59,132 nt of DNA from Acidimicrobiales bacterium (GCA_046543225.1 JBKGZW010000001.1:1-59132); one strand, 5' to 3'. Positions 52,534-58,760 are shown, counted from the first letter of the stretch. Program-made: numbers and translations. Notes: generated by a model from the sequence alone, not told the origin.

Positions 52534-53142
52534 ATGAGCATCCAGGAGTGCTGGCAGCCGTCACTGCTCGACCAAGGCCCCCAGCGCGGCGGCCTGAGCT
52601 TCGCCCACGCGCACCGGCACGACCTGGGTCGGGGAGCGTGGGTCGAGGAGATCCCCTTCGCGGCGACCGGGACCGACGAGCTGTTCGAGCAGGTGCATGG
52701 CCGCGCGCCGTGGGGCGGGGTCGAGACCCGACCGATGTATGACCGCATCGTCGAGGTCCCGCGCCTGCACAGCGGGGTGTGGCCCGACCCGCCACCGCCG
52801 GTGCCGGCCATGGCCGAGGCGCTCTCGGTTCGCTACGGCACCGCGCTCAGCAGCATCTCGGCCAACCTCTACCGCGACGGACGCGACTCGGTCGCCTGGC
52901 ACGGCGATCGGGTCGGCCGTCACCGGGCGGTCACGGTGGTGGCCATCCTCACCCTCGGGTGCCCCCGCCGCTTCCTGCTGCGCCCCAACGGCGGCGGGCC
53001 CTCGTGGGCGTTCGAGCCGGGGCCCGGCGACCTGCTGGTGATGGGTGGCACCTGCCAGCGCACCTTCGAGCACTCGGTGCCCAAGCGGGCCAGGGCCGGG
53101 CCCCGCATCTGCGTGATGTTCCGCGAACCCGGCGGCAACTGA
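52534..53142 (+). CDS. alkB: AlkB-like Fe(II)/2-oxoglutarate-dependent dioxygenase (alkylated nucleic-acid repair)
   Basis: 202 aa. SANLYRDGRDSVAWHGD contains the HxD motif. The sequence continues GDLLVMGGTCQRTFEHSVP with the distal His, then GPRICVMFRE (RxxxTFR-like). Confidence 0.8.
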   Translation: MSIQECWQPSLLDQGPQRGGLSFAHAHRHDLGRGAWVEEIPFAATGTDELFEQVHGRAPWGGVETRPMYDRIVEVPRLHSGVWPDPPPPVPAMAEALSVRYGTALSSISANLYRDGRDSVAWHGDRVGRHRAVTVVAILTLGCPRRFLLRPNGGGPSWAFEPGPGDLLVMGGTCQRTFEHSVPKRARAGPRICVMFREPGGN

Positions 53143-53157
53143 CGCCGCCGACGAGGT

Positions 53158-54288
53158 TCAGGTGCCGGCGCCGGAGAGCGCCACGGGCACCCCTCGGCGT
53201 TGGTCACGATCGACGTGGTCCCGCAGGTACTCGATCAGCTCGCCCCGCCCGCAGCACTCGTCGCGGTGACCGGGATCGTGGCGCTCCTCGAGCGACCGCT
53301 GGTGCGGGCATCCCCCGTGGCAGACCTCGAAGTGCTCGCAGCCCGTTCGTTGTTCGGCCGCGGCGGCGTCGGCGGCCCGTCGCTCGAGCAGCCGGACGTT
53401 GCGACGGATGCGGGTGAAGTCGCCGGTGAGGATCGACCCGAACTGGTAGCGCTCGTCGCCGAGGAAGCGGGCGCAGTGGGCCACGTCGCCGTTGGGTTCG
53501 ACCATGAAGAAGGTGCCGACGCAGTCGCCGGCCAGGGTGCAGGTCGACCCGGCCCCGCCCCGGATCTGGGCCACCAGCGAGTCCAGCTCGCGGATGCGCA
53601 GACCGGGGTCGCCGTGGTCGAGCCAGCAGCGGTGCAGCTCGATGAGGAAGGCGTTCATCTCGGCCCGGCTCAGGTACTGGTCGCCGGCCTCACCGGCGGG
53701 CAGCGAGTTCGGGGGGCGCACGGCGTTGAACCCCACCCCACGGGCGCCGAGCGCGACCAGGACCTCGAGGGTGTGTTCGGCACCGGCGGCCACCGTCTCC
53801 CGATCCACCGTCAACAGGATCCCCGGGTCGACGCCGTGGGCCCGGAGCCGCTCGAGCCCCTCGATCACCGCGTCGTAGGACCCCGACCCGTCGACCCGGA
53901 TGCGGGTGCGGTCGTGCGCCTCGCGGGGCCCGTCGACGCTGACCCCCACCCCGAAGCGCTCGCGGGCGAGAAAGCGCGCCCACTCGTCGGTCACCAGGGT
54001 GGCGTTGGTCTGGAGGCTGTTGCGGACGAGCTGCCCCGGCCGCCGGTAGCGGGCCTGCAGCTCCAGCGCGGTCTCATAGAACCGGATCGGAAGCACCAGC
54101 GGCTCGCCGCCGTGCCAGCCGAAGTCGACCGCGTCGTGGTGCGGGTCGGTGCAGGCGGCGTGGACCAGGTGGGCGAGCACCTCGAAGCTCATCGTGTTGC
54201 CGGGGCCCGCCCGCCAGTCGTCGCAGTAGCTGCAGCGCAGGTTGCACAGCCGGGTGGCCTTCACGGTGAGCGCCAGCTGGCGGGTCAT
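53158..54288 (-). CDS. Radical SAM / SPASM-domain enzyme (anSME / peptide-maturase-like)
   Basis: 376 aa. The CX3CX2C motif sits at residues 16-23 (LCNLRCSYC). GGEPL is present. The C-terminal SPASM Cys clusters are CTLAGDC...VAHCARF and CEHFEVCHGGCPHQR...ECC. There is no N-terminal extension that could hold an RRE. Confidence 0.9.
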   Translation of the reverse strand: MTRQLALTVKATRLCNLRCSYCDDWRAGPGNTMSFEVLAHLVHAACTDPHHDAVDFGWHGGEPLVLPIRFYETALELQARYRRPGQLVRNSLQTNATLVTDEWARFLARERFGVGVSVDGPREAHDRTRIRVDGSGSYDAVIEGLERLRAHGVDPGILLTVDRETVAAGAEHTLEVLVALGARGVGFNAVRPPNSLPAGEAGDQYLSRAEMNAFLIELHRCWLDHGDPGLRIRELDSLVAQIRGGAGSTCTLAGDCVGTFFMVEPNGDVAHCARFLGDERYQFGSILTGDFTRIRRNVRLLERRAADAAAAEQRTGCEHFEVCHGGCPHQRSLEERHDPGHRDECCGRGELIEYLRDHVDRDQRRGVPVALSGAGT

Positions 54289-54545
54289 CGGTCCGACCCC
54301 CCGGTCGGGCCACCAGGAAGGCCGCCACGCTCGGCCTCGAGACGATCGAGCACCGAGCGTTGGTCGTCGTCGAACCCCGACCCGAGGTGGCGGCGCCGGT
54401 CGAGCGGGTCCATGGCCGACACCAACACCGCCCGCAGGAGGCGGCGCTCGGTGTCGGGGAGCTCCTCGTCGAGCTCGGCCAGTCGTGCCGCCAGCGCCGC
54501 CACGTCCTCGTCGGTGGCGGGGTCGTCGGCGGTGGGATCGTCCAT
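54285..54545 (-). CDS. Small acidic Cys-free protein B (86 aa), paralogous to protein A
   Basis: Internal ATG 54545 of ORF 54285..54782. Its stop overlaps the radical SAM ATG (ATGA), and its ATG shares one nt with the stop of protein A (TGATG). The sequence is MDDPTADDPATDEDVAALAARLAELDEELPDTERRLLRAVLVSAMDPLDRRRHLGSGFDDDQRSVLDRLEAERGGLPGGPTGGSDR. Confidence 0.6.
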   Translation of the reverse strand: MDDPTADDPATDEDVAALAARLAELDEELPDTERRLLRAVLVSAMDPLDRRRHLGSGFDDDQRSVLDRLEAERGGLPGGPTGGSDR

Positions 54546-54841
54546 CACGTCGGCGGATACCACTCGTCGTAGGCGCGCAGCACCCACGGGTCCTTCTGCT
54601 GGGCCATGGGGCTGAGGGCGTCGGTGGCCAGGGAGTCGAGCTTGGGCAGGCTCCCCCCGCCGCCGGAGAACGTGGAATCGGGGAACGAGGTGGAGCCGAA
54701 CCCCTCGACCTCGGACTCCTCGGTCTTGGCGAGCAGCGCGTACAGCAGCGAGCGCTCGCGCTCGGGCAGCGATCCGCCCCACTCGTCGAGCTTGCGGGCG
54801 AAGGCCTCGACCTCCTCCTGGGTGAACTGATCGTCGGACAT
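54545..54841 (-). CDS. Small acidic Cys-free protein A (98 aa), candidate precursor or partner of the radical SAM enzyme
   Basis: Internal ATG 54841 of ORF 54545..55003 is preceded by GAGAGGAG. The sequence is MSDDQFTQEEVEAFARKLDEWGGSLPERERSLLYALLAKTEESEVEGFGSTSFPDSTFSGGGGSLPKLDSLATDALSPMAQQKDPWVLRAYDEWYPPT. Confidence 0.65.
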   Translation of the reverse strand: MSDDQFTQEEVEAFARKLDEWGGSLPERERSLLYALLAKTEESEVEGFGSTSFPDSTFSGGGGSLPKLDSLATDALSPMAQQKDPWVLRAYDEWYPPT

Positions 54842-54926
54842 CACCACTCCTCTCGTCGCACGCTCTCTCTGAGCGTCCCGAGCCGCACGACGGTACGCCG
54901 GTGGATCGGTTACAGCCGGGGGAGGC

Positions 54927-55544
54927 TCAGGCTGCCGGGACCGATGCCTCGAGGAGCCACGTGTGGCCCCAGACCCGTCGCCCGGTGACCGTGGCCCCGG
55001 CATCGACCACCCATCGCTCGGCCTCGTCGGGGTGCACCTGGTGGTCGTGGAACGCGCCGAGGATCCCGTGCACGCCCCGCCACTCGGGCACCACGTCGAT
55101 GCCGTGCCCCGACACCAGCAGCGTGGCGCCGGGTCTGGTGAGCGCCGCCATGGAGGCGACGGCGGTGGCTGGGTCGTCGACGTCGTCGATCATCAGCGAG
55201 GCGACGACCAGGTCGAACGACCCCGCCCGCAGGGGCGGGGCCAGGACGTCTCCGAGCATCGGAGCGATCCGACACGGGCCGATCGAGGGAGGACCGGCAC
55301 GGTGGAACGACTCGGCCACGGCCTCGACGTCGAACGGGACGACCAGCTCGGTGGAGCCGGGCAGGGCGCCCGTCGCCAGGCAGCCACCGACGAAGGTGGC
55401 GCGGCGGTCGCAGCCCTCGCCCACGCTGAGGACCGTGCGCGGGGCGATGCGTGCGAGGACCCCGGCCATCTCCCGCCGGAGCGCTTCAATGTCGTCGTCC
55501 TGGCCGGCGCGGATGGCGCGCACCTGCTCGGCGGTGAGGGTCAC
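54927..55544 (-). CDS. Class I SAM-methyltransferase-fold protein (degenerate glycine loop)
   Basis: This is the last 205 codons of ORF 54927..56729. GTG 55544 makes a GTGA overlap with the helicase stop. VLSVGEGCD takes the motif I position. ELVVPFDVE carries the acidic residue of motif II. FDLVVASLMIDDVDDPATAVASMAALTRPGATLLVS is Methyltransf_11-like. Confidence 0.55.
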   Translation of the reverse strand: MTLTAEQVRAIRAGQDDDIEALRREMAGVLARIAPRTVLSVGEGCDRRATFVGGCLATGALPGSTELVVPFDVEAVAESFHRAGPPSIGPCRIAPMLGDVLAPPLRAGSFDLVVASLMIDDVDDPATAVASMAALTRPGATLLVSGHGIDVVPEWRGVHGILGAFHDHQVHPDEAERWVVDAGATVTGRRVWGHTWLLEASVPAA

Positions 55545-57973: not shown

Positions 57974-58306
57974 GTGCTGGTGCTCGATGTCGAGGAGCGG
58001 CCGCTCGGGCGCGTCCTGATCGTGTCCGGCGACCTCGACGTGGCCACCGCACCGCAGGTGCGCAGCGAGGTGGTCAGGTTGCTCGGCGGCGGCAGCTCCG
58101 ACCTGGCGATCGACCTGACCCGGGTCGACTTCATCGATTCGTTCGGCCTGGGGGTGCTCGTCGGGGCCCTCAAGCGGGTGCGGGGAGCGGGGGGCCACCT
58201 GGGGCTGGTGATCACCGAGCCCCGGGTCCGCAAGGTCTTCGAGGTGACCGGCCTCGACCGGGTCTTCGACCTGACCGAGACCGTCGACGCCGCACTGGAG
58301 CGCTGA
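57974..58306 (+). CDS. STAS-domain anti-sigma factor antagonist (RsbV/SpoIIAA-like)
   Basis: 110 aa with a GTG start. LIVSGDLDVATAPQVR...IDLTRVDFIDSFGLGVLVGALKR has the phosphorylatable Ser in the DSFG context. Confidence 0.85.
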   Translation: MLVLDVEERPLGRVLIVSGDLDVATAPQVRSEVVRLLGGGSSDLAIDLTRVDFIDSFGLGVLVGALKRVRGAGGHLGLVITEPRVRKVFEVTGLDRVFDLTETVDAALER

Positions 58307-58313
58307 GGCGGCC

Positions 58314-58760
58314 ATGAGCGAGATCGTCGAGCTGGAGATCCCCGCCAGGCCGGACTTCATCTCGCTCGCCCGCCTCGTCATCACCGGCGCCGCCACCATC
58401 GAGCCGACCTTCTCCGACGACCGCATCGAAGACCTGCGCCTGGCCGTGTCCGAGGCGTGCACCAACGCGATCGAGGCCCACGCCAGCGCCGGCCAGGACG
58501 ACCGGATCGTCATCCACTGCGACCTGGCCGAGGACCGCATCGAGGTCGAGGTGACCGACCGTGGAGGCGGGTTCGACCCCGACGAGGCCTCCTCGGCCCC
58601 CGACCCCGAACATCCCGAGCGGCTGCTGCACGAGAGCGGGCTGGGGATCCCCCTCATGAAGATCCTCGTCGACGAGACCAAGTTCGAGCTCACCCCCAGC
58701 GGCACCGTGGTCCGTCTCGTCGTCGCCCGTCCACCCCGGCCCGGCTCCGACGAGGGGTGA
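58314..58760 (+). CDS. Anti-sigma factor / Ser kinase (RsbW/SpoIIAB-like, HATPase_c)
   Basis: 148 aa. LAVSEACTNAIEH is the N-box, DRGGGFD is G1, and GLGIPLM is G2. Confidence 0.85.
   Translation: MSEIVELEIPARPDFISLARLVITGAATIEPTFSDDRIEDLRLAVSEACTNAIEAHASAGQDDRIVIHCDLAEDRIEVEVTDRGGGFDPDEASSAPDPEHPERLLHESGLGIPLMKILVDETKFELTPSGTVVRLVVARPPRPGSDEG

Follow-up and report, generated by a model that had tools for sequence, protein, structure and literature searches.

The 59,132-nt stretch of DNA from an Acidimicrobiales bacterium (GCA_046543225.1 JBKGZW010000001.1:1-59132; hereafter the window, in whose coordinates all positions are given) carries, on its minus strand, four consecutive genes encoding a class I S-adenosylmethionine (SAM)-dependent methyltransferase, two small proteins that we call A and B, and a radical SAM/SPASM enzyme. 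We propose, with a probability that we put at roughly 0.7, that this cassette makes a RiPP (a peptide synthesized by the ribosome and modified after translation) of the darobactin/triceptide type, with A as the precursor and B as a detached precursor-binding domain of the enzyme. A reading of the window made from the sequence alone (the original prediction) had already recognized a radical SAM/SPASM peptide-maturation cassette here, and our analysis agrees on this point.

Organization and conservation of the gene cassette

The genes of A (98 aa, ATG start; 54545..54841), B (86 aa; 54285..54545) and the enzyme (376 aa; 53158..54288) are linked by overlapping stop and start codons, and the predicted coordinates were borne out. 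At the TGATG junction the TGA of A (54547-54545) shares bases with the ATG of B (54545-54543), while at the ATGA junction the TGA of B overlaps the ATG of the enzyme gene (54288-54286). A GAGGAG sequence lies five nt before the start codon of A. The methyltransferase gene (205 aa, GTG start; 54927..55544) lies directly upstream of A, and its product scored 29.9 with Pfam Methyltransf_11 against a cut-off of 21.2. Compared with a 94%-identical relative (L158), all four genes are under purifying selection, with dN/dS ratios of 0.20 for A, 0.34 for B, 0.13 for the enzyme and 0.30 for the methyltransferase. The values obtained for A and B indicate that these small open reading frames are real genes.

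Loci of relatives were retrieved via the enzyme and, independently, via B. In the closest ones (L158; L168, from the Acidimicrobiales metagenome-assembled genome GCA_034521975.1; L160; and L162, from GCA_034522155.1) a class I methyltransferase of 205-209 aa directly precedes A, B and the enzyme, and these four loci represent three distinct flanking contexts: L158 and L168 share that of the window, L160 has the upstream helicase gene but neither the Tad genes nor alkB, and L162 has neither helicase nor Tad genes. Since the block persists across the three contexts, we consider methyltransferase-A-B-radical SAM to be the conserved unit, with the methyltransferase as its first gene and a candidate tailoring enzyme. 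The alkB-like gene, which had been grouped with the cassette together with the methyltransferase, is retained only where the whole neighbourhood is retained (three syntenic genomes); the methyltransferase belongs to the cassette, but the alkB-like oxygenase does not.

Beyond these relatives, A-like, B-like and radical SAM genes keep together amid unrelated neighbours in Acidimicrobiales, Streptomyces, Jatrophihabitantaceae, Planctomycetota, Flammeovirgaceae and further groups. In the loci examined, A-like genes always adjoin a DarE-like radical SAM gene, and in 3/3 loci retrieved via B alone a radical SAM gene lies immediately downstream of B. Distant loci keep A-B-radical SAM together with differing extras, namely a second radical SAM gene (L166, L170), an MvdD-type ATP-grasp gene with an aminotransferase gene (L167) or an ABC transporter (L164). 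A constant trio with a variable periphery typifies RiPP gene clusters.

Paralogous pairs of DarE-like radical SAM genes were also observed, in Streptomyces (L003, L006, L170), where both copies stand in tandem after a single A-B pair, and in an Acidimicrobiaceae locus (L004), where the two copies flank B.

Protein A as a putative precursor peptide

Judged by its sequence, A behaves as a precursor peptide. Its parts are, in order, a leader module (approximately residues 8-38, QEEVEAFARKLDEWGGSLPERERSLLYALLA; 54728..54820), for which a helix-turn-helix hairpin is predicted; an acidic linker, the last residues of which are EVEGF; another conserved motif (LPKLDSLATDALSP); and the putative C-terminal core (residues 84-98, DPWVLRAYDEWYPPT; 54548..54592), the C-terminal tail reading QQKDPWVLRAYDEWYPPT. 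Twenty-two A-like proteins, which constitute our precursor alignment, align well in the leader alone (consensus xVxAFAxKLxxWxxxLPExERxLLxxxL), with K17, L18, L25, E29 and L33 of A as strongly conserved positions. The middle region is variable across the alignment, and a Trp near the C-terminus, W94 in A, is invariant (22/22). Hence A displays the generic features of a RiPP precursor: it adjoins the enzyme gene, combines a conserved leader with a hypervariable core and is under purifying selection.

The original prediction described A and B as proteins that match no named class. Searches of both against Pfam and NCBIfam indeed returned nothing meaningful; nonetheless, both belong to sizeable families, of at least 94 sequence clusters for A and about 230 for B. 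The at least 94 clusters found by the profile search with A are all annotated as 'hypothetical', nearly all are 96-110 aa long, and 88/94 lack Cys. Neither A nor B contains Cys, as predicted, and neither carries a C/S-x-P-x-R motif. The GGSLP repeat of A (two copies) and the GGLPGG of B are present as described but are not conserved in the relatives.

The core of A contains three aromatic-X-X triplets, W86-V-L, Y91-D-E and W94-Y-P. They are conserved in the subfamily formed by the window, P0113 (95% identity), P0115, P0161, L160, L162 and L164, which shares the pattern L[SR]P-x6-W-x-[LM]-x-A-Y-D-x-W-x-P or, more loosely, W-x-[LM]...Y-x-x-(x)-W-x-P. In triceptides such triplets are the sites of cross-linking, and the three of A are candidates by this likeness. 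The precursors of other relatives end in WTYRF, WQYRF, WRFRW, WTFRW or WAYHW, and most of the 94 clusters end in IGPVKIW[TA][FY][RH]W, WTYRF or SWGW. Relatives in which B is fused to the enzyme (see below) have aromatic-X-aromatic triplets, such as WTF, WTY, WAY and WGW; their cores follow W-x-[FYW]-[RH]-[FW], and the WTYRF-type C-termini match the W-T-[F/Y]-R-F core published for daropeptide cluster IV (PMC9055067).

At these fused-B loci the enzyme gene has the A-like precursors downstream and, upstream, a gene for a B12-binding radical SAM protein of ~630 aa; L010 carries two true precursors. We note that L008, L010, L011, L018, L021 and L025 form a distinct, related family, in which the B12-binding protein is followed by the DarE-like radical SAM enzyme with N-terminally fused B and then by one or two precursors (in L021, 3766-5676, 5677-7077 and 7081-7458). 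Most of the 94 metagenome precursor clusters are of this B12/fused-B type, and none of them is named.

Protein B as a putative adaptor

In contrast to A, B is conserved from end to end, in split and fused forms alike, and has no hypervariable core. Its consensus consists of a helix LxxxLxxh, a helix ERxxLxxLL, a turn A-h-D-P-h-x-R and a last helix LxxxExxxLxxLxxE. The AlphaFold2 model of B has four helices and no strands (mean pLDDT 73, ~90 for the first two helices). A Foldseek search of the PDB gave no structural neighbour (best E 1.4), and neither Pfam nor NCBIfam gave a family match or a PqqD hit. Based on the all-helical model and the lack of matches in these three collections, we conclude that B is not a RiPP recognition element (RRE), the winged helix of three helices and three beta-strands. 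No RRE is encoded in the cassette, in agreement with the original prediction. A search of 1.84 billion representative proteins yielded 230 that resemble B at E<=1e-3, with few exceptions free-standing and 64-110 aa long. A 735-aa candidate with seven B-like stretches (P0229) was rejected as a low-complexity repeat false positive.

The most informative relatives are those in which B is not free-standing. In L007, L008, L010, L011, L012, L018 and L021, B is fused in frame to the N-terminus of the enzyme, with no stop codon between them, and ends a few residues ahead of the KATRLCNLRC motif. The C-terminal helix of B (FDDDQRSVLDRLEAE) directly precedes the radical SAM core in these forms. The same fusion is present in the database gene calls P0035 (473 aa) and P0038 (447 aa), while P0011, the nearest fused relative (55% identity), has half of B, and P0014 and P0018 have only a short helix in its place. 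Conversely, four metagenome proteins of 184-212 aa (P0204, P0221, P0234, P0314) carry B at the C-terminus of an A-like precursor, in the order A-leader, core GPSWNKGAW and complete B, within one polypeptide. In the AlphaFold2 model of P0204 both helix hairpins are confidently predicted (pLDDT 80-93) and the intervening core is disordered. B thus exists on its own, as part of the enzyme and as part of the substrate, as one would expect of an adaptor that contacts both partners.

The original prediction also proposed that A and B share an N-terminal module, and this similarity proved significant. In a single BLASTP comparison, B and the leader of A are 46% identical over 37 aa (E 5e-4), and in a profile-profile comparison with hhalign the two families match over 45 columns with a probability of 96.5% (E 8.7e-10). 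By these sequence comparisons the leader of A and the N-terminal module of B are homologous and thus paralogues.

This homology would equally be expected if A and B were both precursors of one enzyme and the shared module their common leader. Many B proteins do carry an aromatic residue or His after AMDPxxRxR (e.g. RRRH, RRRW, RTRF), and two true precursors occur in some related loci such as L010. However, that position is lost in many other B proteins (RMRV, RMAA) and is absent in the fused forms. Together with the full-length conservation of B, its predicted folded helical structure and its covalent attachment to the enzyme in several lineages, this makes a two-substrate system very unlikely. 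Of the two divisions of labour left open by the original prediction, one recognition partner plus one substrate is therefore favoured over two substrates.

The leader-like module could instead make B a mimic, that is, a competitive inhibitor or timer acting at the leader site, or a chaperone shielding A from proteolysis. A stabilizing partner is plausible, given that E. coli rapidly degrades DarA when it is unmodified and that the solubility of DarE depends on its precursor (PMC9055067, PMC10705402). Yet an inhibitor would not be expected as a permanent fusion to the N-terminus of the enzyme or to the precursor, and the tight translational coupling suggested by the gene overlaps, together with the invariable co-occurrence, fits an obligatory subunit better. 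We therefore regard a leader mimic as distinctly unlikely and read B as a detached adaptor that would bind the precursor, not as a second substrate.

A bolder version of the adaptor reading is that B represents a new kind of recognition element, derived from a duplicate of the substrate. Its hairpin would pair with that of the A leader in a pseudo-symmetric bundle, and its C-terminal helix would plug into the enzyme. Occurring alone, on the enzyme and, as a follower, on the precursor, the module would be a portable adaptor. We put this forward tentatively, as a possible arrangement that we would not yet bet on.

The radical SAM/SPASM enzyme

The catalytic motif of the enzyme, C15-x3-C19-x2-C22 (CX3CX2C), starts at Cys15 and not, as first reported, at residue 16, and the enzyme has no N-terminal extension. 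With 66.7 bits against a gathering cut-off of 29.5 for Pfam Radical_SAM (PF04055), it is a member of the radical SAM superfamily. Eight C-terminal Cys residues (250, 256, 272, 317, 323, 327, 345 and 346) are invariant across 25 homologues, despite which the Pfam SPASM score (17.4) stays below its cut-off (21.5).

Among the NCBIfam models the best scores were those of DarW (NF041300; 320 bits) and DarE (NF038005; 271 bits), each with a cut-off of 650, so that the window enzyme differs from these families in reaching about half of the curated threshold at most. The anaerobic sulfatase-maturating enzyme (anSME) model (TIGR03942) gave 215.5 bits (cut-off 349.45) and that of the dynobactin maturase DynA 199 bits (cut-off 450). 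The models of cyclophane (triceptide) enzymes are more distant still, with 69-140 bits against cut-offs of 310-450: GrrM/OscB 119.6 (310), YhhB 107.9 (445), XyeB 69.4 (450), FxsB 102.8 (370) and AmcB 139.5 (425). The earlier guess of a darobactin-like or cyclophane chemistry thus matches the best-scoring models, DarW and DarE, the chemistry itself being a prediction. A whole-word literature search for DarW found no paper.

Homologues of the enzyme form about 45 protein clusters with 38-94% identity, from Acidimicrobiia, Streptomyces, Jatrophihabitantaceae and metagenomes; in the metagenome scan, L081 was the only close enzyme relative among the matches listed. In a neighbour-joining tree of catalytic cores, the clade of the window enzyme is related to the DarE/PasB-type enzymes of Yersinia and Photorhabdus. 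Sister to the DarE/PasB clade is that of the fused-B/B12 enzymes; the split-B enzymes, among them that of the window, branch off next, and a fused member (L007) and a member with a short extension (L164) are nested inside their clade. The enzyme is consequently not an orphan, as it had been called, since it sits within a DarE/PasB/DynA-related clade.

More distantly related DarE-like enzymes accompanied by a single precursor were noted in L009, L013/L014 (Larkinella), L016 (Thermoleophilaceae), L020 (a Bathyarchaeia archaeon, the one archaeal locus of this type), L026 and L081. In their precursors (~115-155 aa) a leader precedes a core rich in Trp (e.g. LRIWFRIWVRFWFRI, GWDKSWLNLIIWDKSW), and a conserved follower, [FL][ST]xEE[IF]xxLxxL, lies at the C-terminus. 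The leader of A gave no match to these precursors. The last helix of B aligned with the follower over 17 columns (P 5.6e-4, probability 30%), which is suggestive only.

The closest solved structure is an anSME (PDB 4K37, E 4e-31, alignment spanning residues 6-336), whose domain layout the enzyme shares: CX3CX2C lies right at the N-terminus, and a Cys-rich, putative SPASM region is present. One might therefore suspect an anSME-like modifier that forms formylglycine, or acts on a protein substrate encoded elsewhere, with A and B as unrelated small proteins; DarE itself can form formylglycine on Ser variants (PMC10705402). We consider this extremely improbable. The anSME score lies below its cut-off and below those of DarW and DarE, no sulfatase, the neighbour that had been named in advance as a finding against the prediction, is encoded in any of the 13 annotated neighbourhoods, and the C/S-x-P-x-R motif is missing from A and B. 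Moreover, the three genes keep company in different phyla; unlike an anSME, the enzyme always has a dedicated small-peptide partner. We agree with the original prediction that the anSME reading is unlikely, as are sactipeptide and ranthipeptide readings.

Flanking genes and the 5' leader of A

Upstream of the cassette, the stop codon of a DEAD/MZB helicase gene (SftH/MrfA-type) overlaps the GTG of the methyltransferase at 55541-55544, and the same overlap is found in L158 and L168. This overlap suggests that helicase, methyltransferase, A, B and radical SAM enzyme probably form one five-gene operon. From the stop/start overlap, a DNA helicase is apparently co-transcribed and translationally coupled with a peptide-maturation cassette, which we record as an observation in its own right. 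Beyond the helicase lies a pair of genes for a STAS anti-sigma-factor antagonist and a HATPase_c_2 anti-sigma kinase (57974-58760, plus strand, and neighbours). The pair is also present in L158 and L168, with topoisomerase I next to it in L168, and represents an ordinary conserved actinobacterial context.

On the other side, the gene of the AlkB-like 2-oxoglutarate (2OG)-Fe(II) oxygenase (52534-53142, plus strand) converges on the radical SAM gene, and the 15-nt gap between them contains no terminator-like site. The Streptomyces relatives L170 and L167 have a different 2OG/DUF6817 gene after their radical SAM genes. In minviopeptin biosynthesis an alpha-ketoglutarate-dependent enzyme cleaves the peptide (PMC12912966), and by this precedent the AlkB-like oxygenase may have a role in peptide processing. 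Scans for promoters, terminators, Rfam families and tRNAs around the cassette were all empty.

The original prediction regarded the cassette as an insertion. The GC content is flat over the cassette and its flanks (0.71-0.75), and therefore bears no mark of a recent insertion. An older one would be compatible with the topA - SftH-type helicase - tad/ssd neighbourhood, which we take, from the Mycobacterium tuberculosis genome, to be conserved in Actinobacteria.

The 85-nt leader of A contains, as predicted, a 6-bp hairpin (ACGCUC-AGAGA-GAGCGU; 54860..54876, read from 54876 to 54860 on the minus strand). Its stem is kept in L158, and L160 has a hairpin of different sequence at the same place. 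However, the whole leader folds no better than shuffled sequences (z = +0.41) and similar hairpins arise in 90 nt of any GC-rich sequence. Nothing demonstrable sets this hairpin apart. The alignment-based covariation was set aside as unreliable, the sequences being out of register. Separately, a hexamer, GTAACC (window ~54905-54910, minus strand), is invariant in the window, L158, L160 and L162 within an otherwise divergent upstream region. It lies ~65 nt before the start of A in L158 as in the window, ~70 nt before it in L160 and ~100 nt before it in L162, which has a 33-nt insertion between the hexamer and the start of A. The hexamer could be a regulatory or processing site.

The order precursor - small binding protein - radical SAM/SPASM enzyme is also that of pyrroloquinoline quinone (PQQ) and mycofactocin biosynthesis, where PqqD and MftB are stand-alone recognition elements. 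Like B, small proteins of the PqqD/MftB type stand alone in some lineages and are joined to the enzyme in others. Here the likeness ends: B is predicted to have four helices and no strands, is homologous to the very leader that it is proposed to bind, and is also found fused to the substrate.

This shared gene order raises the question of whether the same machinery might make an intracellular cofactor or signal, as PqqA-PqqD-PqqE and MftA-MftB-MftC do, instead of a secreted, antibiotic-like RiPP. The cassette encodes no protease, exporter or immunity protein, and its housekeeping-type neighbourhood is stable in three related genomes with uniform GC content, all of which would suit such a product. 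In contrast, no component is related in sequence to those of PQQ or mycofactocin, the nearest characterized relatives of the enzyme make macrocyclic peptides, and the accessory genes elsewhere resemble RiPP tailoring functions (the ABC transporter of L164, the ATP-grasp of L167, the second radical SAM of L166 and L170). We consider a cofactor-like product unlikely, though worth bearing in mind, and retain a macrocyclic RiPP as the preferred reading.

Discussion

We have described a conserved methyltransferase-A-B-radical SAM block whose enzyme has its best curated matches in darobactin-type maturases. Assuming that A is the precursor and B the adaptor, the following sequence of events can be envisaged. 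A, B and the enzyme would be made together by translational coupling, judging solely by the overlapping stop and start codons. B would dock on the enzyme via its C-terminal part and hold the leader of A through its own paralogous hairpin, so that the disordered core of A would be fed into the active site. The enzyme would then reductively cleave SAM, and the resulting 5'-deoxyadenosyl radical would take a C-beta hydrogen from residue 3 of an aromatic-X-X triplet. The carbon radical would add to the indole or phenol ring of residue 1 of the triplet, with the auxiliary clusters accepting the electron. Finally, the methyltransferase may tailor the product, and leader removal and export would depend on functions encoded elsewhere.

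DarE forms ethers only when position 3 of the triplet is aromatic, and C-C links otherwise (PMC10705402). The corresponding residues of A (L88, E93 and P96) are all non-aromatic, which makes C-C cyclophanes (-2 Da each) likelier than ethers (+14 Da). The product is thus likely, by analogy, to be a cyclophane-type macrocycle on WVL, YDE and WYP. The closest parallel in this respect is minviopeptin: its enzyme MicB is likewise related to DarE/PasB, and it introduces three C-C cyclophanes (-2 Da) into a precursor with several aromatic-X-X motifs and no aromatic-X-aromatic (PMC12912966).

The resemblance to darobactin and the daropeptides (DarA/DarE; PasA/PasB for photorhaptin) extends from the anSME-like radical SAM/SPASM enzyme, by its best model matches, to a Trp-containing core at the extreme C-terminus of the precursor. 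It would also include the mode of substrate recognition. DarE has no RRE and reads the leader through a helical region N-terminal to its radical SAM core; DarA is predicted to wrap around this extension of ~60 residues, whose deletion abolishes processing (PMC10705402). We suggest that B may correspond to this extension, with the difference that the extension is part of the DarE polypeptide while its candidate equivalent would be supplied here in trans. Other differences are evident as well. Darobactin has the core W-N-W-x-[KR]-x-F, a DarBCD exporter and a gammaproteobacterial host, whereas the window has the core DPWVLRAYDEWYPPT, no DarBCD transporter, a linked methyltransferase gene and an Acidimicrobiales-type actinobacterial host. 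Both minviopeptin (PMC12912966) and darobactin (PMC9055067, PMC10705402) have been described with a precursor and an enzyme only, without a separate B-type partner.

Several of our results weigh against the proposed function. Daropeptides are defined by a DarE-like enzyme and an aromatic1-X2-aromatic3 ether motif (PMC9055067, PMC10849128), and the core of A has no aromatic-X-aromatic triplet. Furthermore, the Pro at position 3 of W94-Y-P96 would be an unusual acceptor. Neither the window enzyme nor any of the seven relatives tested reached an NCBIfam cut-off, for which reason we regard the enzyme as an unnamed member of the DarE/DynA/anSME-like branch. The cassette itself carries no protease and no exporter, and no ABC transporter was found in it or in its copies in L158 and L168. 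Given the start/stop overlap, the methyltransferase might serve the helicase and not the peptide; against this, L162 has the methyltransferase without the helicase. The proteins in which A and B are fused come from short metagenome contigs (1.26 kb only for P0204) and could be assembly errors. Lastly, an hhalign comparison of B with the N-terminal extension of DarE, in which the last helix of B aligned with the DarE motif LLDxxELxIF, was not significant (probability 6%, P 0.006). The equivalence of the two consequently rests on position, as seen in the fusions, on phylogeny and on function.

Both the class of chemistry and the enzyme family are already known. The combination of a precursor with a free-standing, non-RRE adaptor homologous to its own leader was not found in the literature searched, outside which lies a daropeptide survey published in JACS in 2023.

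Darobactin-type enzymes build strained macrocycles that inhibit BamA, and they recognize their substrates without an RRE. In the cassette and its relatives, nature has in effect taken this recognition apart, with the same domain on its own, joined to the enzyme or joined to the substrate. These loci also bring Acidimicrobiia and Streptomyces into the family, along with new core sequences and a methyltransferase linked to them, and point to at least one large, unnamed family of daropeptide-like precursors in soil metagenomes. Should B be a portable adaptor, such enzymes could be steered with it towards engineered peptides. Likewise, if B did arise from a duplicate of the substrate, it may explain how RRE-less DarE-type enzymes in general recognize their substrates.

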